A stretch of 32,000 nt of DNA from Halomicrobium mukohataei DSM 12286 (GCF_000023965.1 NC_013202.1:2040001-2072000); one strand, 5' to 3'. Shown: positions 2,776 through 21,010, numbered from the stretch's first letter. Numbers and translations: made by a program. The notes: generated by a model from the sequence alone, not told the origin.

Positions 2776-4518
2776 ATGTACCGGGGCCTCGGCCGGCGCG
2801 GGCAGTCGTCGCCGATCGCCGTGATCCTCCTCGTCTCGATGGTCGTCGCCGGCTCGCTGGCCGTCGTGACGCTGGGTGCCCAGTCGCTGTCTGACACCCG
2901 AGAGACGATGGACGTCGAGCGCGCCGAGAAGGGCCTGACACAACTGGACTCGAACGTCGCGATGGTCGCGCTGGGGAGTGCCGGCGGACAGGAGCTCTCG
3001 CTGTCGAGGACGGACGGGGCCGCCTATCGGCTCCGGGACGACGCGGGGCGGATGACCGTCGCGGTGACGAACACGTCCAACGACTCCACGAAGACGGTGA
3101 TGAACGCGACGCTCGGCTCGATCGCCTACGAGAACGACGGCCGCTCGGTCGCGTACCAGGGCGGCGGCGTCTGGAAGACGGACGGCGACGGCGGCTCGCT
3201 GATGGTCTCGCCGCCGGAGTTTCACTACCGGGACGCGACGCTGACGCTCCCGCTGGTGACCGTCTCCGGCGACGAGTCGCTCGACGGCCGGATCGCGGTT
3301 CGGCCGGGCGGTCGCTCGACGCAGCACTTTCCGAACGCCTCGGCCGACGAACAGTGGGTGAACCCGCTCGACGGCGGCCGCGTCAACGTGACCGTCAGGA
3401 GTGAGTACTACCGGGCGTGGGGCCGATTCTTCGAAGAGCGTACGGACGGCGAGGCCACGCTCGATCACGCGAACGAGACGGCGACGGTGACACTCGTCGT
3501 CCCGGCCGGGCCACAGACCGTCACGAACGCCGTCGCGGCCACGTCAGCGGGCGGCGAGATCGTACTGGCCGGAAGCGGCGATCAGACCCGGACCGACAGC
3601 TACAACTCCTCGAAAGGGACCGGGCTGTACGCCGACACGAAGACGCACAACGGGTCGATCCGGACGGCCGGCGACGTGACGGTCAAGGGCAACAGCCAGG
3701 TCAACGGCTCGCTGGCGTCGGGAGGCAAGGTGACCGTCAAAGGGAGCGGTGTGGTGACCCGAGACGCCGGTTACACCGACGACATCAAGGTCACCGGCAG
3801 CGGCGGTGTCGACGGCTCGATCGAACAGCTCTCGGGCGTCGACGGGATCGGTCCGATCGACGCCGTCGTCGATCGACGGTACGAGAACGCGACCGGGGAC
3901 AACGACAACGGCGACACGAGCGCGATCACGGGGACGACGCTGAGCGACGGCGACCAGACGCTCTCGGCCGGCGAGTACCACCTCGATCGGCTCGTTCTCG
4001 ACGGCGAGACGCTGACGCTGGACACCGGGACCGGCGGGACGATCAGTCTCGCGGTCCGTGACTACGTCCAGCTGAAGAACGACGGCCGAATCCACGTCGT
4101 CGGAAACGGGACGGTCCGCCTGTACGTCGACGGACAGGCGACGACGGCGTCGAACCACCACTTCTCGATCGAGGGAAGCGGCGGCCAGATCGACATCGAC
4201 GAGGGGCAGAACGCCTCCCAGTTCTGGCTCTACGGCCGCGAGGACTTCCAGGGACGGATCGACGGGACCTCCAGTGACACCCATCTGTTCGAGGGCGTCG
4301 TCTTCGCACCCGGCGGCACGCTCGGCAGTAGCTCGTTCACGGTCGAGAAAGGGAGCCTCTACGGCGGTGTCGTCACCGGGAGCGTCACGATGGACAACGG
4401 CGGACAGGTCCACTACGACCGGTCGCTGAAGCGGGTCAACGCCGTCCCGCCGGCCGAGAACATCGTCCGACTGACCTACCTCCACGTCTCGGAGATCGAG
4501 ATCGAAGCTCGCGACTGA
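2776..4518 (+). CDS. F1: class III signal peptide (type IV pilin-like) protein with C-terminal beta-helix-like repeat domain
   Basis: - 580 aa; N-terminus MYRGLGRRG|QSSPIAVILLVSMVVAGSLAVV.
- The next ~200 aa resemble E1, E2 and F2 (SIAYENDGRSVAYQGGGVWK...SPPEF).
- Middle: G/V/T-rich short repeats (GDVTVKGNSQVNGSLASGGKVTVKGSGVV) reminiscent of bactofilin or polymer-forming beta-helix repeats.
- The C-terminal region (GTVRLYVDG...FEGVVFAPGG...GGVVTG) is reminiscent of large bacterial Tad/T4P-associated pilin-like proteins. Confidence 0.8.
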   Translation: MYRGLGRRGQSSPIAVILLVSMVVAGSLAVVTLGAQSLSDTRETMDVERAEKGLTQLDSNVAMVALGSAGGQELSLSRTDGAAYRLRDDAGRMTVAVTNTSNDSTKTVMNATLGSIAYENDGRSVAYQGGGVWKTDGDGGSLMVSPPEFHYRDATLTLPLVTVSGDESLDGRIAVRPGGRSTQHFPNASADEQWVNPLDGGRVNVTVRSEYYRAWGRFFEERTDGEATLDHANETATVTLVVPAGPQTVTNAVAATSAGGEIVLAGSGDQTRTDSYNSSKGTGLYADTKTHNGSIRTAGDVTVKGNSQVNGSLASGGKVTVKGSGVVTRDAGYTDDIKVTGSGGVDGSIEQLSGVDGIGPIDAVVDRRYENATGDNDNGDTSAITGTTLSDGDQTLSAGEYHLDRLVLDGETLTLDTGTGGTISLAVRDYVQLKNDGRIHVVGNGTVRLYVDGQATTASNHHFSIEGSGGQIDIDEGQNASQFWLYGREDFQGRIDGTSSDTHLFEGVVFAPGGTLGSSSFTVEKGSLYGGVVTGSVTMDNGGQVHYDRSLKRVNAVPPAENIVRLTYLHVSEIEIEARD

Positions 4519-4519
4519 C

Positions 4520-4531
4520 ACTGTCGGCTGT
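4520..4531 (+). repeat. post-stop motif ACTGTCGGCTGT, copy 1 (1 nt after the F1 stop)
   Basis: Exact 12-mer. See copies at 4581-4592, 7434-7445 and 12946-12957. Confidence 0.7.
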
Positions 4532-4580
4532 ACCTTCGTGACGATATTCGCCGCCCGGGGTGGCGACATCGGTCACGCAC

Positions 4581-4592: not shown

Positions 4593-4607
4593 GGGACTCC
4601 TCGGCCG

Positions 4608-5360
4608 TCACAGCTCGATCGTCAGATCGATCTCGTGGACGGGAACGTACAGTCGATCCGGCGACGCCCCCGGCTCCAGGTAGCACGTCACGCTGGCCGC
4701 GTCCGGATCGGGCGCACACTCCGAGAGAGCTGTCTGCTCGAAGGCTCGCTGCCAGAGCTCCCACCGCGGCGACGTGACGGTCACGCTGACGTTCTCGAAC
4801 TGTCCACCGGAGACGGCGACGGCCGAGGACTGCTGGTTCGCGCGTACCAGGACGGTCGACCCGCCGACGCTCCGGACGCGCTCGGTCCGCGTCTGGACGA
4901 TCGGGACGAGCACACGGCCGTCTCGGGCCACCAGCGGCGGTTCGACGGTGTGAAATCCGCCATCACGGGAGACCTGAAACACCGCGCCACCCTCGTAGAC
5001 GAGCCGTTGCGCTCCGTCGCTCTCGTAGACGATCGGCCTGACCGATCGCTCGACGCTCTCGTTCCCGTCGGCGGTGTCGCGGTCGATTGCGGTCACGTTG
5101 ATCGTCACGTTCTCGCCCGTGTACAACTGTGCGCTGCCGAGGCTGACCTCGGTCGCTCGGCTCGGGGCCCCCCGCTGATGGATGTCGGCCATGTTGTCCG
5201 CCAGCACGTCGAAGGCCTGCTGTGCGTTGTTCGTCTGCTCGGCGTCCCGCACGTCCTGGAGCGTCCCCAGTCCGCTGACCGAGATGATCGCGACCGAGGC
5301 GACGACCATTCCGAACACGAGGGCGAACCCGAGCACCTCACTGACCGCGCGATCAGTCAT
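4608..5360 (-). CDS. E1: class III signal peptide (pilin-like) protein, same fold family as the F N-terminal domain
   Basis: 250 aa; MTDRA|VSEVLGFALVFGMVVASVAIISV; PIVYESDGAQRLVYEGGAVFQVSRDGGFHTVEPPLV parallels F1 and F2. The ATG at 5360 overlaps the D1 stop. I recall this family being annotated as a haloarchaeal DUF (possibly DUF7289); unverified. Confidence 0.85.
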   Translation of the reverse strand: MTDRAVSEVLGFALVFGMVVASVAIISVSGLGTLQDVRDAEQTNNAQQAFDVLADNMADIHQRGAPSRATEVSLGSAQLYTGENVTINVTAIDRDTADGNESVERSVRPIVYESDGAQRLVYEGGAVFQVSRDGGFHTVEPPLVARDGRVLVPIVQTRTERVRSVGGSTVLVRANQQSSAVAVSGGQFENVSVTVTSPRWELWQRAFEQTALSECAPDPDAASVTCYLEPGASPDRLYVPVHEIDLTIEL

Positions 5361-5796
5361 TGCTCACCCCCAGGGCGCTGCCGTCGTAGCCGACGACGAC
5401 CGTTCCGCCGTCGGCCGACGAGTTGCTGAGTGCCGTCCTGTTCTGAACGCCCACCGTGACACGGACCTCGGGACTGCTCGACCGCAGGCGGATCGTCGGT
5501 GACGGCGTCGCCACGAGTTCGAGTCGGTAGGTCGTGCCCGTGATTCGGGCGGGGAACTGCTGTTCGATCCGCACCGTCGCACCGGCCGGATCGTCACTGG
5601 CTCTGACGAGCCTGTCCGCGCGTGCGACGTCCGCCGACACCTGCTGGCCGATCACCTGGAGTTCGGATCTGACGACCTGGCGCTGGCGGTCCTCGACGAA
5701 GCTGCCGGACGCGACGAGCAGCCCCGTCACCAGCATGGTCGCGATCGCGAGGCTGAGAACGTAGCTGAACGTCGAGGAGACGGCGCGATCGTTCAC
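5353..5796 (-). CDS. D1: small class III signal peptide (pilin-like) protein
   Basis: 147 aa; GTG start at 5796 forming GTGA with the C1 stop; MNDRA|VSSTFSYVLSLAIATMLVTGLLV. Paralogue of D2 (13693-14139). Confidence 0.8.
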   Translation of the reverse strand: MNDRAVSSTFSYVLSLAIATMLVTGLLVASGSFVEDRQRQVVRSELQVIGQQVSADVARADRLVRASDDPAGATVRIEQQFPARITGTTYRLELVATPSPTIRLRSSSPEVRVTVGVQNRTALSNSSADGGTVVVGYDGSALGVSND

Positions 5797-6788
5797 GGCG
5801 GCTCACCCGGCGCGACCCGGATCGTCGTCTCGTAGCGCAGCTTCGCCCCGTCGTAGCGGTACGTGACGTTCGCGGCGTAGATGGCGGGCGTCGCGTACGG
5901 ATCGTCTCCGGTCGACGACGACGGCAGGTTCCCGTTGCTGGTGGCGTCGTCGCCGACGACCAGCGAGTAGTTGCCGGTCACCTCGTCGCCCTCCTCGTAG
6001 GCGATCTCGTAGGGTTCCGACACGCCCTCGCCGAACGACAGCGCCGGACACGGTGCTCCGTCGACGAGCCCCGCCGTCAGATCGACGTGGAAGTAGTCGA
6101 CCCCGTCGTCGACCGCACAGACACCCTGCCGTCCGGCACCGTCCTCGACGCCGATCTTGTAGGTCCCGTCGGCGGTGTCGTGGGTGACGTTCATGATCCA
6201 GGTCGCGCCCGCGCCGTCCTCGATCCGCACACGGAACTGGTCGGCCGGGCCGCCGAAGTTGCCCGTCCGGTTGACGCCGCTCACGTTCATCCTGTAGGCA
6301 CGCGTCTCCGCGACGCCCTGGGCGACGCGCCAGTCGACACTCGTCGCGTTGCCTTCGCTCGCGTTTTCGAACGAGGAGCCGCCGGGGGCGTCGTCCCTGA
6401 CTCTGGTCCCGTTCTCGATGTCGGTCGGCCCCGCGACGCTGACCACCTTCCCGCCCGAGGCGTGATGCGCTCCCGACAGCGCCGAGAGCGTCCCGACGCT
6501 CTCGTCGAGGCTCGTCGCCAGCGTCGTCGTGTCGCTGGCGTTGTGCGTGTTCGCGTACTCGATCGCGTGGCCGGTCGACTGCTCGATCGACTGGCGCACC
6601 AGCAACGCGTCGTCGCTGCCAGCCGTTTCGCCGCGGCTGGCGAGGTTCTCCGTGAAGATCGCCGAGTTGACGACCAGCGCCAGCATGACGAACGTGACTG
6701 CCATCACGAAGGCCGCCACCAGAATGACCTGTGCGCGGTCGTCGCCCAGCGAGCGACAGCGGCGACGCAGGCGGCTCAGATCCGCCAC
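5793..6788 (-). CDS. C1: class III signal peptide (pilin-like) protein
   Basis: 331 aa; GTG start at 6788 overlapping the B1 end; ...LGDDRA|QVILVAAFVMAVTFVMLALVV. Collinear with C2. Shares a Cys pair 23-24 residues apart near the C-terminal third. Confidence 0.8.
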   Translation of the reverse strand: MADLSRLRRRCRSLGDDRAQVILVAAFVMAVTFVMLALVVNSAIFTENLASRGETAGSDDALLVRQSIEQSTGHAIEYANTHNASDTTTLATSLDESVGTLSALSGAHHASGGKVVSVAGPTDIENGTRVRDDAPGGSSFENASEGNATSVDWRVAQGVAETRAYRMNVSGVNRTGNFGGPADQFRVRIEDGAGATWIMNVTHDTADGTYKIGVEDGAGRQGVCAVDDGVDYFHVDLTAGLVDGAPCPALSFGEGVSEPYEIAYEEGDEVTGNYSLVVGDDATSNGNLPSSSTGDDPYATPAIYAANVTYRYDGAKLRYETTIRVAPGEPP

Positions 6789-7384
6789 GCGACCACCTCC
6801 ACGCGGACCACGTTGTACACCGAGGTGCCGACCTGCTGGACGGGATAGCGACTCGCCGAACCGACCGTCACCGACTCGTTCGCGGTCTCGTCCGGTCGCA
6901 TCAGCGGATCGTCCGGCTCGAGTGTCACGGTCCGTGAGGCCGACACCGCGTTGTCGCTCGGCCGACCCCGGTAGATCATCCGCCGGGTGGCGATTCCGCC
7001 GCTCGGCCTGCGGTACCGGAGGTAGACGTTGTAGGAGATACTGCGCTCGTCGAGCGTCCGTTCCAGGATCTGCCCGAAGGTCGTGTCCGGCGGCTCGTTC
7101 GTGTAGAACCCGATGTCGGGCGCGCCGTGGAACCGACCGTCGGTGTCGTTCCAGTAGCGGACGCTCGTCGAGAGCGCGCCCCGGTCGGCCGCCGTCGCGA
7201 GCACGCCCTGCGCGACCGAACGCTGCTGGTTCTCGATGTGCTGGCTCGAGGTGCTGGCCGACAGCGGCGTCACTGCCGTCATCTGCATCGCGAAGACGAC
7301 GCTGCTCAACAGCAGCAGCCCCGCGATCACCGCTTCGAGCGTGTGGGCCTGCCCGCGGTCAGGACTCGTACTGCCGGGTGTCAC
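6776..7384 (-). CDS. B1: class III signal peptide (pilin-like) protein (start uncertain: GTG 7384 or ATG 7453)
   Basis: - DRG|QAHTLEAVIAGLLLLSSVVFAM matches B2 (MERG|QAYTLEGTIGAIIVVIAVLIGL); ends ...VVRVEVVAWRI.
- The ORF can extend to the ATG at 7453 (overlapping the A1 stop).
- However, 7385-7446 carries the same noncoding-type element found after the E1 stop, and would encode a basic, non-halophilic peptide.
- I therefore prefer the GTG at 7384, giving a 202-aa product. Confidence 0.7.
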   Translation of the reverse strand: MTPGSTSPDRGQAHTLEAVIAGLLLLSSVVFAMQMTAVTPLSASTSSQHIENQQRSVAQGVLATAADRGALSTSVRYWNDTDGRFHGAPDIGFYTNEPPDTTFGQILERTLDERSISYNVYLRYRRPSGGIATRRMIYRGRPSDNAVSASRTVTLEPDDPLMRPDETANESVTVGSASRYPVQQVGTSVYNVVRVEVVAWRI

Positions 7385-7446: not shown

Positions 7447-7989
7447 TCACCATAGTACGACCTCCAGCGTGACGACCTCGCGATTCAGCGACACCACTCG
7501 ACGCGCGGTCACCGACTCGTCCACGTCGGCCGTCGTCGGTTCGCCCGCCCGGAGAGACACGTCGCCACTCTCGCAGTCGCTCCGGTCCCGCAGCGACGCG
7601 GTGTCCGCGTCCCAGCACAGCGGACTCGCCCCCTCCCGGGCCGTCGTCCCGTTTCGCGTCACCGTGACGTTGACCCGCTGGCGGCTGTCCAGCCCCAGCC
7701 GCTCGTTCGTCGTCTCGCCCGCGAAGTGACAGCCACTCGCAGAGCGATTGTCGAAAAACACCGCCGTACACGTGCCGTTCAGGACCTTCGGACGCTCGGC
7801 GCTGCCCAGCGTCGCCCGCGAGAGATCGTCCGCCACCCTGTCGACGGCGACGGTCTCCTCCTGTGCCCCCGCGGTGAACGGCTCGACCACGCCGGGCACG
7901 AACAGGAAGACGAACAGCACGACGGCGAGGAAGAGACTCATACCGAACGCGAAATCCAACGTCGTCTGTCCGCGTGTGTGACCCCGCAT
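7447..7989 (-). CDS. A1: class III signal peptide (pilin-like) protein
   Basis: 180 aa; MRGHTRG|QTTLDFAFGMSLFLAVVLFVFLF; ends VVTLEVVLW. Paralogue of A2. First gene of the minus-strand array in cassette 1. Confidence 0.8.
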   Translation of the reverse strand: MRGHTRGQTTLDFAFGMSLFLAVVLFVFLFVPGVVEPFTAGAQEETVAVDRVADDLSRATLGSAERPKVLNGTCTAVFFDNRSASGCHFAGETTNERLGLDSRQRVNVTVTRNGTTAREGASPLCWDADTASLRDRSDCESGDVSLRAGEPTTADVDESVTARRVVSLNREVVTLEVVLW

Positions 7990-8167: not shown

Positions 8168-8239
8168 GGGCTCGTAGATCAGTGGTAGATCATCCCCCTG
8201 GCACGGGGAAGGCCCCGGGTTCAAATCCCGGCGAGTCCA
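8168..8239 (+). tRNA. tRNA-Ala (anticodon GGC)
   Basis: Hand-folded cloverleaf:
- Acceptor GGGCTCG/CGAGTCC with the G3:U70 alanine identity pair.
- D arm GATC-AGTGGTA-GATC.
- Anticodon arm TCCCC-CTGGCAC-GGGGA, anticodon GGC at 8200-8202.
- Variable loop AGGCC.
- T arm CCGGG-TTCAAAT-CCCGG.
- Discriminator A at 8239; CCA is not encoded. Confidence 0.9.
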
Positions 8240-8290
8240 CTATTCTGCGTCGCGAGCAAAATTCGCGAGCGGCGCGAATCGTCGTCGACA

Positions 8291-8306
8291 CCCGGATTTG
8301 AACCCC
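8291..8306 (-). other. inverted tRNA T-arm-like fragment (non-functional)
   Basis: The minus strand reads GGGGTTCAAATCCGGG and shares the 12-nt core GGGTTCAAATCC with the tRNA-Ala T arm. The flanks cannot form a T stem or acceptor stem. Confidence 0.5.
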
Positions 8307-8345
8307 TGGAAGTCGCAGCGCCGAGCGCAGCGAGGTGACCGTCTT

Positions 8346-8372
8346 CCCCTGGCTCAAATCCCGTCGAGCCCA
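8346..8372 (+). pseudogene. degenerate direct copy of a tRNA 3' end (T arm plus acceptor)
   Basis: CCCCTGGCTCAAATCCCGTCGAGCCCA versus the tRNA-Ala segment CCCCGGGTTCAAATCCCGGCGAGTCCA: 23 of 27 identical by hand alignment. It has no 5' half and its T stem no longer pairs. Confidence 0.5.
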
Positions 8373-8706
8373 TCTGTAACTAAACGATGCTGGTGCCATC
8401 TTGAATCGCATTTTCGCTGAAATAACGTCTTTAGCGGAGCGATTGGCGTTTTCGAATGATCCTCAGAAAACGGAGATGCTAAGGAGAGCAAGCGGAGGTC
8501 CCGCAGTCTGGCGGTTCCTGAAAGGGAAGTCCGTCGCTAGTACGGCTCGTCTGTCGACGAGTATATCGATTCCCCGGCTCTCCCCAATGGAAGGTGCTGG
8601 CCATGAGCGATCCGGCCGAGACGTCCACGAGCCAGAGTGCGAGCATATTGCGGAGACAATCTGGGAAGTACCGTGATCACTCTGTGAGAGCACAGCTATG
8701 CCTCCC

Positions 8707-8728
8707 GATAGATTTAATCCTATCTATC
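8707..8728 (+). promoter_or_regulatory. F2 promoter: TATA box (TTTAAT, 8713-8718) embedded in the perfect 7-bp inverted repeat GATAGAT-N8-ATCTATC
   Basis: The TATA lies 26-35 nt upstream of the candidate F2 starts (8739 TTG, 8748 ATG). The palindrome arms flank the TATA, which suggests an operator overlapping the core promoter. Confidence 0.5.
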
Positions 8729-8747
8729 CGGTGGGTTTTTGTTCTCT

Positions 8748-11700
8748 ATGATACAATGCTGTGCTAGCGATCACTGGGAAAATATGTGGGGTCAATACGA
8801 ACTGGACGAACGCGGTGTCTCGAATCTTGTGGGTGTTATCCTGCTAGTAGCAATTTCCATAACGGGGGCGTTACTGATCCTTACAGCGGGTCAAACGACA
8901 ATTCAGGACACTCAAAACGAGCAGAACGCGGAAGTCGTATCGGACATGTTCAAACAGGTCGACTCGATGTTCCAGTCGGTACCACGAAACGAGAGCAACT
9001 CTGGATCACGATCGGTTGCGGTTCCAGAGAGTGTTCAGGGGTCAGTAAAGGCGAACAACGATACGACATATAGGATACGACTGAACGATAATCCGACCTG
9101 TGACACAGGTGTACAACCACTGGGATCAATGCAGTACGAGGAGGATGGCACGGTAGTCGGCTACGAAGGAGGGGGCGTTTGGGAGTCCAGAGAGGGTAGT
9201 ACAGTGATGGAGTCGCCGCCGGCACTCACGTACAAGGACGGAAGCCTCAACGTCCAGTTCCAGCGTGTGTCTGGAAACATCACTGACTCCAACGAAATTA
9301 CCGCACAAGTCAACGCTACGGACGAACGCGCGCTCAATGACGAACTCTCGGTACTACTGTACACGAATCTCACACCGTCGAACATCAGCAGTGCAACGTC
9401 GTACAGTCTGACGTGTGCGCCGGCACGACTTCAGAACGCCACTGTGTTCATCAATGACAGTCAGTTCGCTGGCGGGTGGGCACGCTACGCAGAGGACCGT
9501 TTTAATGACCGCCGTGTCGATGTCCAACCCAGCAACTCAGTGAGTCCACGCGAGAACGTTTCGATCACCTTCGAACTCGGTGATGTGTCGCTGCCAGAAT
9601 TCTCTGCTCGGAACGTGACCACGAAACGATACAGTGATACGGGCCCACTGTACGTCAACGCCACCGTCCAGAACGAGGGTGGACTGAGCAGTGAGCAAAC
9701 GGTGACGTTCACCTTCGAAGACCCGGGCGGTAACGAAGTCTCGACCGATTCGAGGGATGTTTCGCTCAACGGTGGTGAGTCAAAGCGAATGAAGTTCGAA
9801 GTCCCTGCTAGCGACTTGAGTTCGGTCACCGCTGGGACGTACGACGCAACGATCGAGACGGAAGACGAGTCAGAATCCAGGGCAGTTCAGTTCACGTCTG
9901 GGAATCACGTGCCAGAGTTCCAGATCACTTCTGTTTCAGCCCCCTCACAGGGACAGGTCGGCGACGACCTGACAGTTGACGTGACTGTCGAGAACCGCGG
10001 AAGTATGACCGGGACGCGAGCAGTCGCCTACGGGTTCGACGGGTCGACAGAGAATACGACAATGTTGCGCCTCCATCCCGGCCAGACGAAGACTCTGAGT
10101 TACCCCCTGTCGACGACTACAGACGGAAGCCACGACTGGACGGTCCAGACCGATGGCACTTCCGAGCAAGGAACTGTCTTTGTGGGGACGGGACCGACGT
10201 TCACCATCAGTGATACGGACGCACCGAAACATGCGGGCGCTGGCAACACCTTCTGGCTCAATGCCACGATTGGCAATACTGGTCAACTCAACGGCACGCG
10301 TGATATCAACCTCACGATCCGGAACGACACTAACGGGAATGTCGTCACGGACGAAGATCAAACTGTCAGCATCAACGGCACGATCGCTGACAGCAGCGAC
10401 GAGGCGACGGTCAACGCCTCGGGAACAATCACCACACCAGGGACTTACGAGTACAAAATCGACACGGGAGATATGGTCCAGACCGGCGGTTTCACTGTCG
10501 GACCGGCACGGTACCCGAATTTCATCGTCACGTCCCTGCGCTTCTCCGACGATCCCGTCGTGAAAGGTGATCAAGTCACCATCGAAGCAGACATCAAGAA
10601 TACTGGCCGTGTAGATGACACACAGCCTGTCAAGATCTCGACCGAGCGCGATATCTTGACGGCACCTAACCGACACGTCGATCCCGGCGACGTAGTGACG
10701 GTTAGTACTACTGTCGACGTCGCGTCACCGACGTTCGTCCTCGGAGAGGCCAACGAAATCACCGTCGAGACCGACAACAATACCGTCGCTCAGAATCTGG
10801 AGGTATTGGCCCAAGAGCCCATCGGCGAGACCGACGACGGACAGATCATCGCCAACGAACGTCTAGACGTTAGCGTCAGACTCCTCGGAGCAGAACTGGA
10901 AGGGAGCAACAGAGAATGGTGCAATCCCAGATACCGCTCGTGTCTCGGCAGCTTCCGGACAAACGGTGGCTACCAGCGTTACGGTATCATCAACGATCCC
11001 GTCGAAATGTCACTCCTGATCAACGGCCAAACGGAGAGTGATCTCTGGCAGTCACTGCCGGGTGATGGCGATGTGAATCACCCTGAAGCCGAACAGGAAC
11101 TTCTGAACGGTCAGAACCCGTACAACGAGACAGCCACCCTAGAGAAAGACGATCGGGCAATCGTGACTGCAACATCGTACCGCTGTAGTTATTACCAGTA
11201 CACGGATGTACGGTTCCCCGACCTCATCACGTTGGGTAACACCGAGCAAGACGCCGTCGGCAAAGAGTGCGCCAACCGTGGGAGGACACGGCTTTCGATA
11301 AACGGGAATGGCGAAGACGACAGAGTTGTCATAAGGAAGGACGGAGAGAGCATCCGCGGCGGCGAGGAGTTTGAGCCTCAGGCGGCAAACTACCAGCGCA
11401 ACGTCAAGCAGATGTTGCAGGGTCGCCTGAACGAGACCGGCCACCTTGACCTGTCGCCCGGCGAACGAGTGCTGATTTACGAACTCTCTGACCGAGACGC
11501 GACCATTGAACAAGCAAGCCAGTCAGGCGATCCCGACTACAACGACGCCCTCGTACTGTTCAAAGTCCTGTCGAAGAACCGCACTCTCTCGCCGCCGGCA
11601 TCCTACGAGATTACCGATCTTAGCGCACCGGCGAGCGTTCGACGCGGCGACTCCGAGACGATTACAGCGACCATCAACAACACCGGTGGACAGGAAGGTG

Positions 11701-12626: not shown

Positions 12627-12945
12627 GCACTCGAAGCGGTTGGCTGTTGTCCTTGTTTCTGATGCTCTTTTCGATGCTCCTCTGCGTCGTGGCCTGATGC
12701 CCCCGCTCACAGCTACTGTCACGTCAGAAGCGACTGATCGACAGAATGCACTACTACAGTACGCCAGTGTCATCGGTACCCGAACCGCTAGCTCGCTGTC
12801 TCGTCACAGCAGCACGCGTCTCGGACAACGAAAGCACGATATCATCTCTCTGTTGAGCGACATCGACTGCTTCATACTGCCAGCAATCCGTTACGAAGCG
12901 TTTCTCGACTCCGAGATCCCGAACCCGAAATCCCTTGCAATAGTG

Positions 12946-12957
12946 ACAGCCGACAGT
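12946..12957 (-). repeat. post-stop motif ACTGTCGGCTGT, copy 4 (1 nt after the E2 stop, minus strand)
   Basis: Exact 12-mer inside the low-GC block, at the same position relative to the E gene stop as in cassette 1. A degenerate plus-strand partner, GCGGTTGGCTGT, lies at 12636-12647, just after the F2 stop. Confidence 0.7.
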
Positions 12958-12958
12958 A

Positions 12959-13690: not shown

Positions 13691-13692
13691 AA

Positions 13693-14139
13693 TTAGGGAT
13701 CCCTCAATTCGAGACACGGTTCCGAAACGTCGAAAACGACGTTGATTTTCCCGCCATCAACAGCACTCGCACAGACACTGCTCTCGTTCTCGAACCGATA
13801 GACGACGGTGCGTTGTGACTCTCCGGTCGCTTCGAGTACTAGAGTCGACTTCGGGGAGTCTGGTTCTAGAACCACGTCGTAGGTCCGCCCTCCGACCCGC
13901 GCCGGATGAGTAGTAGTGTAGCTCAGGTCCGCATCGACACCAGTGGTGTTGAACTGGTCCATACTGACGAGTTCACTCGTGACTGCGCTACCAACGTTCT
14001 CGAGCCCGTTTTCGACGACGTATGATCGCTGGTCGTCTAGTAGCCCACCAGCACCCACGAGTAAGCCCGTGATCATGATTGCCGAAATACCGATCGTCAG
14101 AGCGTGTGTGACGGCCGGCGTCACTGCACGGTTGTCCAT
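13693..14139 (-). CDS. D2: small class III signal peptide (pilin-like) protein
   Basis: 148 aa from the ATG at 14139 (a TTG at 14142 is also possible); MDNRA|VTPAVTHALTIGISAIMITGLLV. Paralogue of D1. Its start overlaps the C2 stop by 1 nt (TGATG). Confidence 0.85.
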   Translation of the reverse strand: MDNRAVTPAVTHALTIGISAIMITGLLVGAGGLLDDQRSYVVENGLENVGSAVTSELVSMDQFNTTGVDADLSYTTTHPARVGGRTYDVVLEPDSPKSTLVLEATGESQRTVVYRFENESSVCASAVDGGKINVVFDVSEPCLELRDP

Positions 14140-15050
14140 CAAGATCCCGCCTCCCCAACGGCGAAAGTGCGGTTGTACGCCGTCGACGGGCTACGATACT
14201 TGTAATCGATGCCCGGATACAGAATTCGTTCACGGGTGCCTGCAAAGTTACCTGTATTGACTGAGCCACCGACGACGGCAATCTCGTATCCACCCTCGGC
14301 TCTGTTACCCTTTTCGAACTCGATAGTGTACGGGCCGTCTAGCGCATCAGTGAACGACGTGAACGTACAACTGGGGGGTGTCATGGCATCTTCGCCATCG
14401 ATCAAGTTCAGTTCGATATCGTCGGCATCCGACCGCCTACATGCTGTATTCGTCGATGTCGGCGTTTCGACGACGACATCAACATCGTCTGGGCCTGGCC
14501 CAGCTACTGGCACTCCCTCGAGCTTGAGTCTCCATTCGTCTCCCGCAGGGTTGCTGACGACGACTTGGAACGACGTTCCGCCAGTTTTGACGGAAGACTC
14601 GTTGAGCCAGAACTGTGACACGGTTTCCGCATCGGTGACCAAGTCCCAGCTGGGCCGCCTGGGACTCGTTTGTTTCCGGTACGGGTCATCCGACTGTGTC
14701 ATTACTGTTTCGTTGACCGACGCCGCCAGGTTGAGCGTGACGTTCGTGTACGTTGCCCCGCCTGCCGCCGTCATGTTCTCTGAGTAGTTCTGGTACGTCG
14801 AGACGTTCTCGCGTAGCGCCTCCTGATACTCCGATCGGTCTGTTCCGTTTCGGACTCTCATATCGAGCCCATAGAGGGCAGCCCGCGTCTCGGCTTCCGC
14901 CTGTGCTGCCTGGTCGATGGCGTCAGTCTGAGCGTTAGATCCTATGGTGTCGGTGTACTGGAGGTCATTCAGTTGGATTACGACGCCGACGATGACGACC
15001 GAAAAGAGGATTGCTCCGACGAGCAAGAGCTGGCCACGTTCGGCTACCAT
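14139..15050 (-). CDS. C2: class III signal peptide (pilin-like) protein
   Basis: 303 aa; MVAERG|QLLLVGAILFSVVIVGVVI. Collinear with C1 and keeps the conserved Cys pair (ACRRSD...PPSC). Overlaps the B2 end by 7 nt. Confidence 0.85.
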   Translation of the reverse strand: MVAERGQLLLVGAILFSVVIVGVVIQLNDLQYTDTIGSNAQTDAIDQAAQAEAETRAALYGLDMRVRNGTDRSEYQEALRENVSTYQNYSENMTAAGGATYTNVTLNLAASVNETVMTQSDDPYRKQTSPRRPSWDLVTDAETVSQFWLNESSVKTGGTSFQVVVSNPAGDEWRLKLEGVPVAGPGPDDVDVVVETPTSTNTACRRSDADDIELNLIDGEDAMTPPSCTFTSFTDALDGPYTIEFEKGNRAEGGYEIAVVGGSVNTGNFAGTRERILYPGIDYKYRSPSTAYNRTFAVGEAGS

Positions 15051-15622
15051 ACGACCAGTCGAACCTCCACGATGTTGTATAGTGGGGAGTCCTCGTCGAC
15101 ATCTGGGATCTTGAACGCTCCCTCACTAATCTCGTATCCTGCTGTCCCACAGCCGTTCCCGAACTGGATCGTCTGATCGTCGTAGAGAGTGATCCGCTGG
15201 GTCCCGACCGCGGTGGTCCGGCCGGGCGAAGCGAGCGCCTGGTTCTCACTGGTCGAGATCACCCGCTCTGTGCGATCGTCGACAGAGTCGTTCCAGTAGC
15301 TCAGATAGAGGTTGTAGTTTCGGTTTTGCCTATCGAAGGTGTGATTCAGCATCTTCTCAAAGCGAGCGTTCCTGTCGCTCTCGACCGTCCCGTCGACAAC
15401 TGATTTGTCTGCACCCCAACACCGAACGACTTCCGACAGCGCACCTGTTTCGGCACCTACGGTCAGCACGTCTTCGCTCTGGGTACTGAGTTGCTCCGAG
15501 ACTTGATCCTGTTGACTGTTCAACTGTCCCGTGTCGACTGCTTGGAGGCCGATCAACACAGCGATTACGACGATGATGGCACCGATTGTCCCTTCCAGCG
15601 TGTACGCCTGTCCCCGTTCCAT
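15044..15622 (-). CDS. B2: class III signal peptide (pilin-like) protein
   Basis: 192 aa; MERG|QAYTLEGTIGAIIVVIAVLIGL; ends IVEVRLVVW. Paralogue of B1. Confidence 0.85.
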   Translation of the reverse strand: MERGQAYTLEGTIGAIIVVIAVLIGLQAVDTGQLNSQQDQVSEQLSTQSEDVLTVGAETGALSEVVRCWGADKSVVDGTVESDRNARFEKMLNHTFDRQNRNYNLYLSYWNDSVDDRTERVISTSENQALASPGRTTAVGTQRITLYDDQTIQFGNGCGTAGYEISEGAFKIPDVDEDSPLYNIVEVRLVVW

Positions 15623-15624
15623 CG

Positions 15625-16170
15625 TTACCAGACCCTCACGACTAGCAGACAGTTGCTCGAACAGATTGTGCTCTCGTCTTCGAGGGTAACCACCCTCGCT
15701 GTACTGGCTGCCCCGTCCTGGTTCTTATAAGCTTCACCCCAAGTCAGTTCTCCGGATATTCCTGTGGCTGGTTTTCGAGAACCATCCGCAAGAGCGTCGC
15801 TGCCGACGACTGTGACGTTGATCGATAGATTGATGCGTCGGTCTGTGGCCACGTCTAGCCCAGCACCGGCTCGCAACCGGTCCAGAGAGTCGGTATCCCG
15901 GTTGAGTGATTGCTCGATCCCGTCAGACGAATCGTACCGCAAGATATTGTCTTTGTCTTCGACGCTGTAGTTCTCGACGACGTAGGAGGCGACTCGGTCC
16001 GCGGACTCTTGTACGTCTCCGCTGACCGGGCGGTCGTACGTCGTTACGACGCTGTTCTGTATGAAAACGAAGGTCGCAATGATCGTCAGCAACAGAACCG
16101 CAACCCCAACCGCAAAGTCCTGCGGTGTCTGTCCACGGTCGTTCGTCGGCTTGTCTTTCCGTACTGTCAA
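15625..16170 (-). CDS. A2: class III signal peptide (pilin-like) protein (start uncertain: TTG 16170 or ATG 16314)
   Basis: ...KPTNDRG|QTPQDFAVGVAVLLLTIIATFVFI; ends CLLVVRVW. The ORF runs up to the ATG at 16314, but that adds 48 basic residues with no counterpart in A1. A TTG at 16170, preceded by GGGGGGAG, gives 181 aa, matching A1 (180 aa). Confidence 0.7.
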   Translation of the reverse strand: MTVRKDKPTNDRGQTPQDFAVGVAVLLLTIIATFVFIQNSVVTTYDRPVSGDVQESADRVASYVVENYSVEDKDNILRYDSSDGIEQSLNRDTDSLDRLRAGAGLDVATDRRINLSINVTVVGSDALADGSRKPATGISGELTWGEAYKNQDGAASTARVVTLEDESTICSSNCLLVVRVW

Positions 16171-16478
16171 TCTTACTCCCCCCACAAATGCGAGCGGATG
16201 GCTGATCCGCCGTCGTACCGCTCGCTTCGTAGCTGCCCCCCGTCGCAGTTCTGCTGGCTGCTGAACTCTCTCAACAACTGTCCGCAACTTCTGCACAGCG
16301 TCCCGAGCCAGCATTGTACTCTCGACATATTCTATCCACGACGGGGCCTGTTGTCACGCACCCAGAAGATGCGTTCGAGTTGATTCAAAATTTGCCCGTC
16401 GGATTATTAGTGTTTTGTTACCATAGCGATGTGAAAGGGAACTGCTCGTGTTGAATCTACGATTCGTGAGGTCTGGTG

Positions 16479-18518
16479 CTATCCGACCGCGATCCAGGTG
16501 ATGAGCGCGATCGTCGGGAGGATCACCGCGAACTTCACTCCCGAGATGATGTTCACGTCCCGGATGTACCCCGCGATGAACGACGAGAGGAGCGCCTGCA
16601 GCGTGACGGCGTGGAAGAACAGCAACGAGAGCAGGTCCGTGTCGACGTTGCCGCCGAAGCTCTGCCCGGTCGCGCCACTTCCCCCCGCACCGGCCGCGCT
16701 CTCGGACAGTCCCGCCATCACGTCGAGGAACTGAGTCTTCAGCAGTGCCATCACGCCGAGCAGCGTCAGGTACGTCATGAGGATGATGACGACCTGCATT
16801 CGGGTCCGGGCGATCCGCTCGCGGTCGATGTCGTCCTGATTCTCCGAGGCCTGTGCCGCCGTCGAGAGCACGTTCTGGATCTGGCTGGACGCTTCCTGTG
16901 CCTCGCTGATGAGCTTGACCGTCCGGGCGAGTCGCGGGACGTGGTACTTGTTGTTGAACTCCCTGAGGGCGTCTTTGAGGCTGGTGCCGTAGTTGACCTT
17001 CGCGTGCATGATCTCGAACTCCTCCGAGAGCTTGCCTCCCGATGTCGTCGAGACCACCTGTACGGACTCCAGCAGCGTCATGCCCGTGTCGTTCGCGCTG
17101 GCGAGTTTCCTGAGGTTCTCCGAGAGACTGCCGATGATCGTCTTGCGCGAGCGGACGTTCCACTCGTAGAAGATCGCTAGCGGGAGCAGGTTGATGTACA
17201 GTGGCACGTACACCCAGAAGAACGTCCCGAGCACTGGTCGAGCGATCATCCCGTCGAGGCTCATCGGTGCGAGATCGAACACGACGACCAGCAGCAACGC
17301 GACGATCGTCACGGGGACCGTCACGCCGAGCACGAACAGCGGGTGATCGCGGAAGAACAGGTCCGGGCGCTTGAGCACCTGCATGAACTCGTAGGTCCCT
17401 TCGCGGCTCTTGATGCGGTCGAAGATCGTGTACTGGCCGGTGTAGTTCTCGACCAGTCCGAGGTTCAGAAAGCCCAGCCCGTCGTCGACGACGAAGTCGT
17501 CGTCCTTGCCGTCGGGCCGCAAGTAGCCGTCGCCGACCTCGTCTCGGGTCACCGTCGAGACGAGCACGAGGAAGCCGGCACCGGTCAGCGGGATCAGCCC
17601 GTAGACCGTGCCATAGAGGAGCCGGTTCTGCGCGTCGCCCATCATCGACATGATGACGAGGATGATGATGAGCAAGAGCGGAAACAGCGACAGGGTCATG
17701 TACATCTCCCCGAACAGTTCGAGGGTGTCGAGCATCTTCTGCTGTTCCTGCTTTGCGGTCCGCATGTGCTTGTCCTTCTGGTCTTCGAGGAAGGAGGTCA
17801 TGTCCCCGCCGGAGTTGATGATCGAGAGCATGTCGGTCAGGAACTGCGAGAGCTCGTCCGACGGCGTCTCGAGTGCCTGATTGCGGATCGCGGTCCGGTA
17901 GTCAGTATCGAAGTACTCCGTCTCCAAGACGATCGACTGGAACTCCTTGGCACACTCCCCGTAGGTGTCGTCGGCCTTGGCCATCGCCTGGAGAATCTCC
18001 AACTGGTTGAGCCCCCCGACCGACAGCGCGTACATGAACGAGATCGAGTCCGACAGCAGGACGTTCACCTCCCGCTCGCGTGCGTTGGCCCGGAAGTACG
18101 GGATCGAGACCAGCGATCCGAAGCCGATACCGAAGCCGATGACACCGAACACCAGCCCGGTGACCAGGATCAGCGCCGGGATCTTGATCACGTCGAGCGC
18201 GGCCGAGACCCCCTCTGGCAGTGGGATCCCGATGAACGTCGGTGCCTCGGCTCCAGTGCCGCCCAGCAGGAAGGTGACGCCGAGGTAGCCGATCAGCGTG
18301 CCCACGAGCCACAGCGCCAGTCCCGAGATGACGCCGATCGCCAGCGCGCGTGCGAGGAACATCTCGACGTTGTCGGCCATCCGGGCCTGTGCGAGCTTCT
18401 TCTCGACGTTCCTGACGAAGTCGCCGTCCTCGTTGAACAGCCACTGGAAGAGGGGATAGAACGTGTCCCCGAGCGCGCCACCCGAGAGCTGTCGCTGGCC
18501 GCGCGTGTCGAGGCTCAT
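16479..18518 (-). CDS. pilC: type IV pilus/archaellum-family membrane platform protein (PilC/TadC/FlaJ-like, T2SS protein F family)
   Basis: ORF 16479..19040 trimmed to the ATG at 18518, which overlaps the pilB stop (ATGA). 679 aa, polytopic, with two large cytoplasmic helical domains separated by TM clusters, as in FlaJ/TadC-type proteins. Immediately downstream of the ATPase gene. Confidence 0.85.
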   Translation of the reverse strand: MSLDTRGQRQLSGGALGDTFYPLFQWLFNEDGDFVRNVEKKLAQARMADNVEMFLARALAIGVISGLALWLVGTLIGYLGVTFLLGGTGAEAPTFIGIPLPEGVSAALDVIKIPALILVTGLVFGVIGFGIGFGSLVSIPYFRANAREREVNVLLSDSISFMYALSVGGLNQLEILQAMAKADDTYGECAKEFQSIVLETEYFDTDYRTAIRNQALETPSDELSQFLTDMLSIINSGGDMTSFLEDQKDKHMRTAKQEQQKMLDTLELFGEMYMTLSLFPLLLIIILVIMSMMGDAQNRLLYGTVYGLIPLTGAGFLVLVSTVTRDEVGDGYLRPDGKDDDFVVDDGLGFLNLGLVENYTGQYTIFDRIKSREGTYEFMQVLKRPDLFFRDHPLFVLGVTVPVTIVALLLVVVFDLAPMSLDGMIARPVLGTFFWVYVPLYINLLPLAIFYEWNVRSRKTIIGSLSENLRKLASANDTGMTLLESVQVVSTTSGGKLSEEFEIMHAKVNYGTSLKDALREFNNKYHVPRLARTVKLISEAQEASSQIQNVLSTAAQASENQDDIDRERIARTRMQVVIILMTYLTLLGVMALLKTQFLDVMAGLSESAAGAGGSGATGQSFGGNVDTDLLSLLFFHAVTLQALLSSFIAGYIRDVNIISGVKFAVILPTIALITWIAVG

Positions 18519-21010
18519 TCGCCTTCGGCCTCCGCGCCGGCTTTGGGTACGAACTCTCCGAAGTCCACCTCCTCGTCGTCCGTCTGCTCGGTGCCCTCGT
18601 CGCCGCTCATCAGCGCCGAGACGATGTCCGGCGTCTCGCGCTCCTGGAACTTCTCGAACAGCGGGCCGGCGTTGTCGAGGATGTCGGCGGTCTCGTCGAG
18701 CATCTCCGGCGGTGCCTCGGGTCTGGGGACCATCTCCTCTTTGGCCTCGTCGATGTCGATCTTGACCGACTCCATCTCTCGGAGGTCCTCCAGCGAACTC
18801 TCCAGGTCGTCGTTGGCGATCAGCGTGAGGATCGTTCCGGGATCGTTGATGAACGCCTGGATCGTCGCCGCCACCTGCGTGTACGTGTTGAGCCCGTTCT
18901 CGATGAGGTGTGCCAGTACGACCTTGCGCTTGAACAGCTCCTCGTCGAGTTTCTCCTGGGTCCACCCGCGGTCGAACTTGATCTCTTCGAGGGTGTTGGA
19001 GTTGCCCATCTGGATGTACTCGTCGGTCTCGGCGCGCCACTCGTAGACGTCTCGGACGTTGATTTCGTCGTTCTCGGCGGAGTACTCGTTGATCTCGGTC
19101 AGGGTCTTGTTTCGGCGGACCTTGCTGCCGTCGACGCGGGTCTGGGTCTGGATCGAAACGAGGTCGAGGGCGGTAAACAGCGTCTTCGAGACGTTGATCG
19201 GATCGGTGGTGAACCGCTTGATGACCTCGCCGACGGAGTCGGCGTGGAAGGTGGTGTAGGTGGTGTGACCGGTCGACATGACCTGAAAGAGCACGCGCCC
19301 TTCCTCGCCGCGGATCTCGCCCATGACGATGTAGTCCGGGCGCTGGCGGAGCGCGGCTTCCAGCAGGTCGAACTCGTCGACGTCGCCCTTGTCGTCGTCG
19401 CCGAACGAGGGCCGGGTGACGCTGGCGACCCAGTTGCGCTGGGGCAGTTCGACCTCGCGGGTGTCCTCGATGGAGACGATCTTCGAGTTCGACGGGATGA
19501 AAAGCGAGACGGCGTTCAGGCTGGTCGTCTTCCCCGACGCGGTCCCGCCAGCGAAGATGAGGCTCTTGTTGTTCTCGATACAGAGCCAGAGAAACGCCAT
19601 CTCGTCGAGCGAGAAGGTGTTCCAGTTGATGAGGTCGATCGGCGTGAAGGGAACGTCCTTGAACTGCCGGATCGTGTAGTTCGTCCCGTGGTCCGACACT
19701 TCTCGACCGAGCGTCAGTTGCGCGCGCGAGCCGTCCGGCAGGGTCGCGTCGACCTGTGGCTGGCGCTTCGAGATGCCCTTGCCAGAGCGCTGGGCGAGCT
19801 TGACGACGAAGTCGTCGAGGCTCTCTCGACCGTGCTCGACGTTCGAGATGATCTGTTCGTAGTCGGTGTGGTAGACGAACACGCGCGAGTTGTAGCCGTC
19901 ACAGGAGATGTCCTCGACGTTGATGTCGTGTTTCACCGGGTCGATCTTCTGGTAGCCGATGAAGTCCCGCTTGAGGACGTACAGCAGCTTCTCGACCTGG
20001 TACTCGGAGAGTTGCTCGGGGTCGTCTTCGAGGACGGCCGGCTCGGGCCGGGCACTGATGCCGTCGAGCTGGCCGGTCCCGACTGCCTGGGCTTCGACCT
20101 CCATGCCCAGGAACTCTTTGAACTGATCGAGCACTCCGGGTTCGGCGCTACCCACGGGGCCGCTGTACAGATCGTAGCGGTTCAGCAGCTGCTCGGCTTC
20201 CCGCTGGATCACGTCGGCCCGGTCGGCCTCCGACCCCTGTACGATCACGTCGTCCTCGGAGTACTTGATCGCGGTCTTCAGCTTGTTCGAGAGGAATCCC
20301 TTGAGATCGTCCTCGATCTCGTTGTGGTAGGGCTCGACGACGTAGTACTTCTTCTCGTTTTCCTTCCGAGAGTGGAAGATGATCACGCAGGCGTAGGGTT
20401 TGTTGACCCAGTAGCGCTCGATCTCCGTGAAGTGCGTCTTCTTCTTCAGCGGGACGGCCTTCTCCAGATCGTAGCGGTTGACGACGGTCGTGTGACCGTC
20501 CTGTGTCGAGAAGAAGGCGTCTTCGTCCAGTTCCGGATTGACGTCGACGGTTCGCTGCTCGACGAGGTTGTCGAGTAGCTCTGCGGCCCCGTCGGCCGCC
20601 GACAGTTCGCTCTCGACTTCCTCGGGCTCGAAGCCCAGATACTCGGCGGGGTCGAACGGGATCTTCTCGCCGTCGCCGTCCGTCGGCGGCGTACTGTCTT
20701 CCTCGTAGTAGTACTCTTGCTTGAAGTGTTCCCACGTGTAGACCCCTTTCGCGACCGGCGTCGCCGCCGGATCGACGTAGGCGTCGAAGGGCTGTTTCAG
20801 CGTCTTGGCGTTGCTCGCGGCATCTGTCAGTACCGATTCGATGTCGTTCGGGTCGAAGCCCAGATACTGGCTTCGATCGAACCGACCCCCGCTGTGGTGG
20901 TCCCGCCGAAGATCTTCCCAGGTGTACTCACCGACGATGGCCGGCGGATCCTCGGTCACCTCCCCCCGAGTGACCTCGGACCGGCTCTCCCCCGTGTCAT
21001 CAATTGCCAT
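18515..21010 (-). CDS. pilB: type II/IV secretion system family ATPase (PilB/FlaI/VirB11-like) with long acidic N-terminal extension
   Basis: 831 aa. Walker A FAGGTASGKTTSLNA; Walker B-like RPDYIVMGEIRGEE; His-box GHTTYTTFHADS. The ~300-aa N-terminal extension contains a duplicated YTWE...YLGF[DE]P...ES motif. Confidence 0.9.
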   Translation of the reverse strand: MAIDDTGESRSEVTRGEVTEDPPAIVGEYTWEDLRRDHHSGGRFDRSQYLGFDPNDIESVLTDAASNAKTLKQPFDAYVDPAATPVAKGVYTWEHFKQEYYYEEDSTPPTDGDGEKIPFDPAEYLGFEPEEVESELSAADGAAELLDNLVEQRTVDVNPELDEDAFFSTQDGHTTVVNRYDLEKAVPLKKKTHFTEIERYWVNKPYACVIIFHSRKENEKKYYVVEPYHNEIEDDLKGFLSNKLKTAIKYSEDDVIVQGSEADRADVIQREAEQLLNRYDLYSGPVGSAEPGVLDQFKEFLGMEVEAQAVGTGQLDGISARPEPAVLEDDPEQLSEYQVEKLLYVLKRDFIGYQKIDPVKHDINVEDISCDGYNSRVFVYHTDYEQIISNVEHGRESLDDFVVKLAQRSGKGISKRQPQVDATLPDGSRAQLTLGREVSDHGTNYTIRQFKDVPFTPIDLINWNTFSLDEMAFLWLCIENNKSLIFAGGTASGKTTSLNAVSLFIPSNSKIVSIEDTREVELPQRNWVASVTRPSFGDDDKGDVDEFDLLEAALRQRPDYIVMGEIRGEEGRVLFQVMSTGHTTYTTFHADSVGEVIKRFTTDPINVSKTLFTALDLVSIQTQTRVDGSKVRRNKTLTEINEYSAENDEINVRDVYEWRAETDEYIQMGNSNTLEEIKFDRGWTQEKLDEELFKRKVVLAHLIENGLNTYTQVAATIQAFINDPGTILTLIANDDLESSLEDLREMESVKIDIDEAKEEMVPRPEAPPEMLDETADILDNAGPLFEKFQERETPDIVSALMSGDEGTEQTDDEEVDFGEFVPKAGAEAEGE

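Follow-up and report, generated by a model that had tools for sequence, protein, structure and literature searches.

Why does a single pair of archaeal pilus motor genes lie beside two complete sets of pilin-like genes? The question is raised by a locus of Halomicrobium mukohataei DSM 12286, analysed here in a stretch of 32,000 bp with a GC content of 63% (NC_013202.1, 2040001-2072000; hereafter the window, in which positions are counted from the first nucleotide). The window encodes one PilB assembly ATPase and one PilC/TadC platform protein together with two six-gene cassettes, numbered 1 and 2, whose members are called A to F (Table 1). The reading that we favour, and regard as probable rather than secure, is of one machine of the PilB4/PilC4 type at a conserved chromosomal site, with two paralogous pilin sets in cis, one of them conserved and the other exchangeable. 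The two-set architecture around a tRNA hotspot is new, as is the evidence that the set nearest the motor is a horizontally replaced module under purifying selection.

A first-pass annotation, made from the sequence alone, had described 12 open reading frames (ORFs) with class III N-termini, and the pattern, a short charged leader, R-G or R-A, then Q or V and about 20 hydrophobic residues, is present in 12/12 where it had located them. With a slash at the signal boundary, the N-termini of cassette 1 are MRGHTRG/QTTLDF (A1), ..SPDRG/QAHTLEAV (B1), ..GDDRA/QVILVAAF (C1), MNDRA/VSSTF (D1), MTDRA/VSEVLGF (E1) and ..GRRG/QSSPIAV (F1), and those of cassette 2 are ..TNDRG/QTPQDF (A2), MERG/QAYTLEG (B2), MVAERG/QLLLVG (C2), MDNRA/VTPAV (D2), MTGTDRA/VSDTL (E2) and ..LDERG/VSNLVG (F2). 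The ORFs form six homologous pairs of the order, strand and sizes that had been claimed, each set consisting of five minus-strand genes and a plus-strand F convergent on E; in Pfam profile searches, both members of every pair match the same family above the gathering score. The two F proteins share an N-terminal DUF7289 domain, followed by DUF7305 in F1 and by CARDB-type immunoglobulin (Ig) repeats in F2. Identity within the pairs is just 22-35% (direct BLASTP), which points to an ancient paralogy or to fast sequence evolution. The proposed landmarks are mostly real: the C-terminal tryptophan (W200) is invariant in 72 DUF7288 sequences and the cysteine pair of C is spaced by 23 residues in C1 and 24 in C2, while the Y-x-GGG-V-W...PP motif is found in E1, F1 and F2 but is replaced in E2 by Y-T-A-G-A-T-F...T-P-A. 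B1 is the most conserved member of the cassette (1544 homologues), the exact E1 protein occurs in Halomicrobium genomes, and NCBIfam holds no models for A-F. As had been noted, the window has one ATPase/platform pair (one T2SSE, one T2SSF), and a prepilin peptidase was not found among the other window ORFs scanned.

The histories of the two cassettes differ sharply. In the comparison with the sister strain Halomicrobium sp. KBTZ05, the genes for Lrp, aminotransferase, PilB, PilC, A1, B1 and C1 have a synonymous divergence (dS) of 0.10-0.15, a ratio of non-synonymous to synonymous divergence (dN/dS) of 0.03-0.32 and an amino-acid identity of 94-99% (99.3% for PilC). By contrast, A2-F2 have a dS of 0.97-1.69 with a dN/dS of 0.09-0.15 and an amino-acid identity of 72-85%. 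Nucleotide identity to KBTZ05 is 94-95% up to position 8372, 75% over 8724-16183 and 95% from 16352, and the BLAST breakpoints fall at 8372 and at 16183-16352. The GC content at third codon positions (GC3) is 0.62-0.70 in 6/6 cassette 2 genes against 0.86-0.92 in every other gene tested, PilB and PilC included, and the GC content of the cassette 2 block is about 56%. Between two Haloarcula species, dS is 0.41 for PilC, 0.44-0.85 for cassette 1 and 0.92-2.2 for cassette 2; across genera, identity is 75-96% for PilC, 33-89% for cassette 1 proteins and 23-63% for cassette 2 proteins.

Given its foreign GC3, a dS about ten times that of the flanks, its sharp edges and the purifying selection acting on it, cassette 2 is a functional module that has been replaced horizontally by a divergent allele beside a tRNA hotspot. 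Cassette 1, orthologous to the single set of most haloarchaea, has been inherited vertically and forms, with the motor, the backbone of the locus. The first-pass annotation had proposed two alternative modules; the cassettes are not equivalent, one being vertically inherited and the other foreign in composition, strain-variable, replaced and next to a tRNA integration site. Neither cassette is decaying, as both are under purifying selection (dN/dS of A1-C1 against KBTZ05, 0.17-0.32) and all 12 ORFs are intact.

The 3' end of the tRNA-Ala(GGC) gene that separates the cassettes is a live integration site. Wherever a scanned Haloarculaceae locus has this gene, it is encoded antisense to A1 and some 200 bp upstream of it, and in Halorarius, Natronomonas and Halogranum the same tRNA gene follows F, beside S15. 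What lies between PilC and the tRNA 3' end varies: cassette 2, low-GC islands, a Tat-signal protein or almost nothing. In Haloarcula salina (locus L007, 1-9100) and H. pellucida (locus L010, 3700-8700), among others, this slot is filled not by cassette 2 but by low-GC islands (0.39-0.59 in these two species), which encode an integrase along with large ORFs of helicase/restriction-like or defence-like character. In Halomicrobium katesii (loci L005 and L089), which is about 98% identical to the window over the pilus locus, identity breaks exactly at the tRNA 3' end (window position 8239), and about 44 kb with a tyrosine integrase gene are inserted between the tRNA and F2. H. katesii, H. salina and Halorientalis IM1011 all have integrase elements at this site; in IM1011 the integrase follows cassette 2. 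In the window, the divergent block is bounded on the left by an att-like repeat of 27 nucleotides, and an inverted, T-arm-like fragment lies at 8291-8322; an integrase was not found in the window. A simple model of integration at the tRNA, in which an island is bounded by two att sites, was also considered and is not supported; no second copy of the tRNA 3' end was found at the PilC-side edge of cassette 2, which makes homologous replacement more likely.

Eighty loci around DUF7288 relatives from GTDB species genomes, and more found by exact protein look-up, were annotated with hidden Markov models built from the window proteins. The frame Lrp-aminotransferase-PilB-PilC-...-rpS15-RecJ/Cdc45-like is conserved in many genera (>20 loci), and its commonest state is a single cassette right after PilC (about 18 loci with full flanks), in genera that include Haloglomus, Natronomonas, Halorarius, Haloplanus, Halogranum, Haladaptatus and Natrialba. 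The double state, PilC-A2..E2-<F2-tRNA-Ala-A1..E1-<F1, was found in Halomicrobium (three strains), Haloarcula sediminis and onubensis, HArc-gm2, Halorientalis pallida and marina, and one metagenome-assembled genome (MAG). The cassette 1 ortholog lies directly downstream of the same PilB/PilC ortholog in most genera, often with a gap of 0-10 bp, and in most genomes the motor-proximal set forms an operon with pilBC, the gaps being 5-60 bp. Haloarcula rara and regularis have cassette 1 only, after PilC and the tRNA, and Halosimplex is also without cassette 2; one Halorientalis strain has no cassette 1 within 4 kb, and one MAG (L050) carries its extra cassette downstream instead. Complete systems are likewise encoded on megaplasmids in Halobaculum, Haloferax mediterranei, Salinigranum and Salinibaculum. 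On the 187-kb plasmid of Halobaculum halophilum, a complete PilB-PilC-A-E-F system has a small gene for a type IV pilin N-terminal domain protein (Pilin_N) right upstream of PilB (locus L090, 1957-2406), which could be a candidate major pilin for PilB4-type systems. Among the viral contigs of IMG/VR no DUF7288 relatives were found, so there is no sign of viruses carrying the cassettes.

The first-pass annotation knew of no described function for this cassette type, and the type itself proved not to be new: the same pilin set has been described in silico for the euryarchaeal clade 2 'PilB4-type' type IV pilus locus (PMC4858521). Makarova, Koonin and Albers (2016; PMC4858521, Fig. 4B) distinguish two kinds of euryarchaeal clade 2 systems, one of them typified by the PilB4 locus of Haloferax volcanii, and describe for the PilB4-type ATPase/TadC module a pilin set of its own, arCOG06117-04652-07777-03926-02911 x2. 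In this set arCOG03926, of the FlaG/FlaF/PilA family and distantly related to PilA, is the predicted major pilin, and arCOG02911, of 250-550 aa and prone to duplication, is a signature minor pilin. Table S4 of the same paper lists two loci for Haloarcula hispanica, Lrp-aminotransferase-FlaI-TadC-arCOG06117-04652-07777-03926-02911 at 1.78 Mb and L1-L10-L12-<arCOG02911 (1238 aa)-arCOG06117-04652-07777-03926-02911-<02911-<02911-S15 at 1.93 Mb; both sets are thus listed, split over two loci, without discussion. Since the flanking genes and gene sizes are the same in the window, A corresponds to arCOG06117, B to 04652, C to 07777, D to 03926, and E and F to 02911, an assignment based on synteny, order and size; the Pfam DUF order, identical in both cassettes, matches the arCOG06117-04652-07777-03926-02911(-02911) set. 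The same six-gene order is present in Archaeoglobus. In H. volcanii and H. gibbonsii the locus consists of pilB4-pilC4 (HVO_1160/1159) and HVO_1158-1154, and in H. gibbonsii pilB4C4 is expressed and down-regulated upon virus infection. A literature search by the Pfam DUF names found no paper using them. Few pilus loci are as widespread in haloarchaea and related Euryarchaeota as that of the PilB4 type.

The window therefore shares with the PilB4-type locus the FlaI/VirB11-family ATPase with TadC/PilC, the ordered pilin set and the Haloarcula neighbourhood (Lrp, aminotransferase, S15). It differs from the published description in having two full sets per ATPase/TadC pair in cis, whereas PMC4858521 stresses duplicated ATPase/TadC pairs sharing one pilin set, and in a second set that is foreign in composition, strain-variable and beside a tRNA gene, an arrangement undescribed there. 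The PilB3-PilC3/PilA1-6 system of H. volcanii likewise serves several class III-signal pilins with one motor, and cross-complementation between its PilB/C paralogs shows that pilin sets are modular; unlike A-F, PilA1-6 are small proteins of the Pilin_N type (arCOG02416) encoded at scattered genomic sites, and no pilin genes accompany the PilB3 locus in cis. The earlier claim that the window has no obvious PilA-type major pilin stands insofar as no PilA (Pilin_N) gene was found there: none of A-F reaches the Pilin_N threshold, and E1 alone matches it (E = 0.022, 16.1 bits against a cutoff of 25.2). It needs a caveat in that D corresponds to arCOG03926, the predicted major pilin of Makarova et al. 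D-type genes are enlarged in some second cassettes, encoding 434 aa (locus L036, 3644-4948) and 885 aa (locus L050, 16980-19637) against the usual ~150, and the Archaeoglobus fulgidus member of arCOG03926 has 959 aa, which indicates that the predicted 'major pilin' can carry large extra domains.

The predicted structures have the shapes expected of pilins and, for F, of pilin-anchored surface proteins, though the models do not thereby identify a ligand. The AlphaFold2 model of B1 (72 sequences, pLDDT 90.4) has a helix of 55 residues and an alpha/beta head, with no match to a PDB structure in Foldseek (best E = 0.41). That of F1 (85 homologues, pLDDT 87.6) has an N-terminal helix of 54 residues (12-65), a beta-rich domain and a C-terminal beta-solenoid, for which the nearest PDB folds in Foldseek are beta-helices of the DUF3494/ice-binding type (probability up to 0.99 but E > 1e-3 and TM 0.42-0.48, not significant). 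Foldseek matches of F1 to tapirins were weak and were not used as evidence. In F2 the DUF7289 head is followed by four CARDB-like Ig repeats, a unique Cys-containing insert of about 260 aa at residues ~690-950 with no Pfam or PDB match, and three further Ig repeats. Searches of PDB with the F2 sequence and with the F1-family profile gave no significant match, the profile search nothing below E = 0.2. These features suggest that the large F proteins are pilin-anchored and of the surface or adhesin kind.

The favoured reading would work as follows. The precursors of A-F would be cleaved by a prepilin peptidase encoded elsewhere, and PilB and PilC would build a pilus or a pilus-priming complex from either set. 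F, anchored by its pilin domain, would display a beta-solenoid in the case of F1 or an Ig-domain stalk with its unique insert in the case of F2. Since either set could be assembled and F1 and F2 differ in the displayed domain, the cell might expose two distinct surfaces for adhesion or recognition, of which one is conserved and the other varies between strains. From the sequence it is plausible that the cassettes are two alternative modules for one motor, as first proposed; that a cassette forms only a tip or initiation complex is an analogy and is not established, the published model instead giving the set its own major pilin, D. What stands of the first-pass interpretation as a whole is the recognition of type IV pilin-like proteins and of two complete, intact paralogous sets beside one PilB/PilC; what needs correcting is that the cassette type is already described and that the two sets are not equivalent.

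What each set builds can be read in two ways. Each cassette may be a self-sufficient pilus, with D (arCOG03926) as major pilin, A, B, C and E as minor pilins and F as a tip or decorating pilin, so that the locus would specify two different filaments. The published prediction for arCOG03926 argues for this, as do the small size of D, the smallest protein of the set with a canonical DRA/VS pilin N-terminus, and the lack of a PilA (Pilin_N) gene in the window; yet D lies mid-operon and overlaps both neighbours (by 4 nt with C1 and 8 nt with E1), which suggests equimolar expression, unusual for a subunit needed in thousand-fold excess, and the small Pilin_N gene upstream of PilB on the Halobaculum plasmid also speaks against it. 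We regard this as possible though somewhat doubtful. Bacterial type IVa pili have minor pilins and PilY1, and type IVb pili have tip minor pilins with large C-terminal domains (CofB/TcpB). By analogy, the cassettes might be minor-pilin priming or tip complexes for PilA-type filaments encoded elsewhere, with F as tip adhesin, an explanation that we entertain only tentatively. It accords with the translational coupling of the genes, with the presence of five small pilin-like proteins and a large one, comparable to the four to five minor pilins and PilY1 of bacteria, with the assembly by PilB3C3 of H. volcanii of pilins encoded in trans, and with the Pilin_N gene beside the plasmid-borne system. 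The two kinds of system would be alike in having several low-abundance pilin-like proteins per operon and a large protein with a non-pilin domain at the filament end, and the layout of F, a pilin head with an effector domain, is that of the bacterial tip proteins, its placement at a tip being drawn from the same analogy. They differ in that no sequence or fold relationship was detected and that the window has an archaeal signal type and motor: neither GspH/I/J/K-type minor pilin folds nor the PilY1 beta-propeller were matched, B1 having no PDB match and the C-terminal domain of F1 resembling beta-solenoids best. The coupling of D and the plasmid-borne Pilin_N gene make us lean slightly towards a priming or tip complex, and the published prediction favours the opposite.

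Several observations weigh against the reading of one machine with two pilin sets. In the Haloarcula hispanica/sebkhae/japonica group the locus has been split by a rearrangement between E2 and F2: F2-tRNA-cassette 1-S15 is now preceded by ribosomal protein genes and lies about 140 kb away from PilBC-A2..E2. (In KBTZ05, a gene for an IS240-family transposase lies at the same junction; locus L088, 12859-13494.) Apart from the archaellum ATPase, H. mukohataei has two ATPases of clade 2 and two of clade 4, and such further PilB/C paralogs in the genus, like the split, bear on whether this motor serves cassette 1; the 'single motor' of the first-pass annotation accordingly holds only in cis, for the window with its one PilB/PilC. 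Cassette 1 might thus be uncoupled from this PilB/PilC, using another PilB/C paralog or standing alone, with its adjacency an accident of tRNA insertions. It is a separate transcription unit behind the tRNA and an oppositely oriented gene, and in Halomicrobium katesii it is 44 kb from F2. We consider this unlikely, as its ortholog directly follows the same PilB/PilC ortholog in most genera, the syntenic frame is kept, and Haloarcula hispanica has one PilB4-clade ATPase only (Table S3/S4, PMC4858521). In Halomicrobium, the gap of 165-308 bp between PilC and A2 leaves co-transcription of cassette 2 with pilBC unassured. The adhesin role proposed for F is read from its domain architecture, the Foldseek matches being weak. 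In a neighbour-joining tree of B proteins, type 2 sequences lie on long branches outside a multi-family type 1 clade, where long-branch attraction is possible, and the tree could not decide whether the type 2 lineage arose by tandem duplication of the cassette and tRNA followed by acceleration, or by import. That one cassette is a redundant duplicate heading for loss would fit the absence of cassette 2 from Haloarcula rara, H. regularis and Halosimplex and of a nearby cassette 1 from one Halorientalis strain; with 12/12 ORFs intact and both sets kept in several genera, and with the decay of a duplicate rejected by the dN/dS values, this is highly improbable.

In Pseudomonas aeruginosa, divergent pilA alleles with accessory genes are reportedly exchanged horizontally between pilB and tRNA-Thr. 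That pilin island would resemble the present locus in having a variable pilin block between the assembly ATPase side and a tRNA gene, with divergent alleles in close strains; it is unlike it in that six genes (~8 kb), not a major pilin and one accessory gene, are exchanged here and that a conserved second set lies beyond the tRNA. Replacement-type flexible genomic islands of halophiles are mostly known from genes for glycosylation, the S-layer or O-chains. Like them, cassette 2 is lower in GC, keeps its genomic position, has alleles that diverge strongly while being equivalent in function, and encodes products exposed at the surface. No example of such an island made of a pilin set was found in the literature searched. 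A bolder and rather unlikely proposal is that cassette 2 is a horizontally exchanged six-gene 'specificity module', swapped by recombination at the tRNA-Ala and PilC borders, which would set what the pilus recognises (a surface, partner cell or episymbiont) or virus attachment, with cassette 1 as the invariant default. With one motor and two full pilin sets, of which one is conserved while the other has been replaced between sister strains, the locus is a natural experiment with clean genetic handles, in which the comparison of the replaced with the conserved set points to the proteins likely to face the outside world. Whole pilin sets, not just single pilin genes, can move as units in archaea, and this bears on adhesion, biofilm formation and the diversity of virus receptors in hypersaline communities.

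Table 1 Features of the pilus locus in the window (E-values are from Pfam unless stated otherwise).
Feature	Position	Strand	Description
rpS15 gene and leader	1994-2594	-	right-hand frame of locus, conserved (synteny, >20 loci; Rfam RF03143)
F1	2776-4518	+	580 aa; class III signal; N-terminal DUF7289 (6e-26), C-terminal DUF7305; convergent on E1
E1	4608-5360	-	250 aa; DUF7289 (1.1e-78), arCOG02911-type
D1	5353-5796	-	147 aa; DUF7266 (4e-26), arCOG03926-type, published predicted major pilin
C1	5793-6788	-	331 aa; DUF7261 (3e-9), arCOG07777-type; Cys pair
B1	6776-7384	-	202 aa; DUF7288 (4e-67), arCOG04652-type
A1	7447-7989	-	180 aa; DUF7287 (1.9e-42), arCOG06117-type; heads cassette 1 operon
tRNA-Ala(GGC)	8168-8240	+	between cassettes (ARAGORN, Rfam)
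att-like repeat	8346-8372	+	27-nt direct copy of tRNA 3' end, degenerate (85%); repeat search
Replacement block	8373-16351		entire cassette 2; nucleotide identity, GC, GC3
F2	8748 or 8784 (ATG) to 12626	+	~1280-1295 aa; class III signal; DUF7289 head (9e-16); convergent on E2
E2	12959-13690	-	243 aa; DUF7289 (1.2e-35)
D2	13693-14139	-	148 aa; DUF7266 (7.7e-18)
C2	14139-15050	-	303 aa; DUF7261 (5.2e-6, barely over gathering score); Cys pair
B2	15044-15622	-	192 aa; DUF7288 (1.7e-45)
A2	15625-16170	-	~181 aa from TTG at 16170; DUF7287 (1.4e-34)
PilC/TadC platform	16479-18518	-	679 aa; two T2SSF domains (5.7e-26; Pfam, NCBIfam)
PilB assembly ATPase	18515-21010	-	831 aa; FlaI/VirB11 family; T2SSE (1.3e-31)
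Aminotransferase and Lrp/AsnC regulator	21120-22762	-	left-hand frame of locus, conserved (synteny, >20 loci)

The window is identical in sequence to the Halomicrobium chromosome CP045142.1. In both five-gene operons neighbouring genes abut or overlap by 1-13 nt, the sole exception being a gap of 62 nt between A1 and B1, and the PilB and PilC genes overlap by 4 nt. An alternative upstream ATG for A2 at 16314 would give an atypical leader of about 60 aa. In PilB the ATPase core spans residues 413-633, and the sequence on either side may correspond to the N- and C-terminal extensions typical of haloarchaeal PilB4; the NCBIfam FlaI model matches with E = 1e-121, under that model's cutoff, and the matches to PilB3_N and PilB3_C are below the gathering score.

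Upstream of rpS15 an S15-Halobacteria ribosomal leader (Rfam; 2528-2594, minus strand) shares a divergent intergenic region of about 180 bp with the start of F1. On the other side of the locus, a BtpA-family gene and a gene for an MscS-like channel (23778-25655) are strain-variable, H. katesii being without about 1.6 kb at 23983-25626 and KBTZ05 without about 1 kb at 24671-25638. A stand-alone gene for a CheC-like phosphatase (26492-27094, plus strand) near the pilus locus keeps its position in other Halomicrobium strains, and in the Natrialba locus (L086) che genes directly follow F. At about 28660-32000 (plus strand), where the regional GC content is lower (~0.60), an ORF of >1100 aa that runs past the end of the window has a Sec/Tat-like, not a class III, signal, and with its repeated beta-rich segments and an acidic Thr/Asp-rich stretch it probably encodes a cell-surface glycoprotein.

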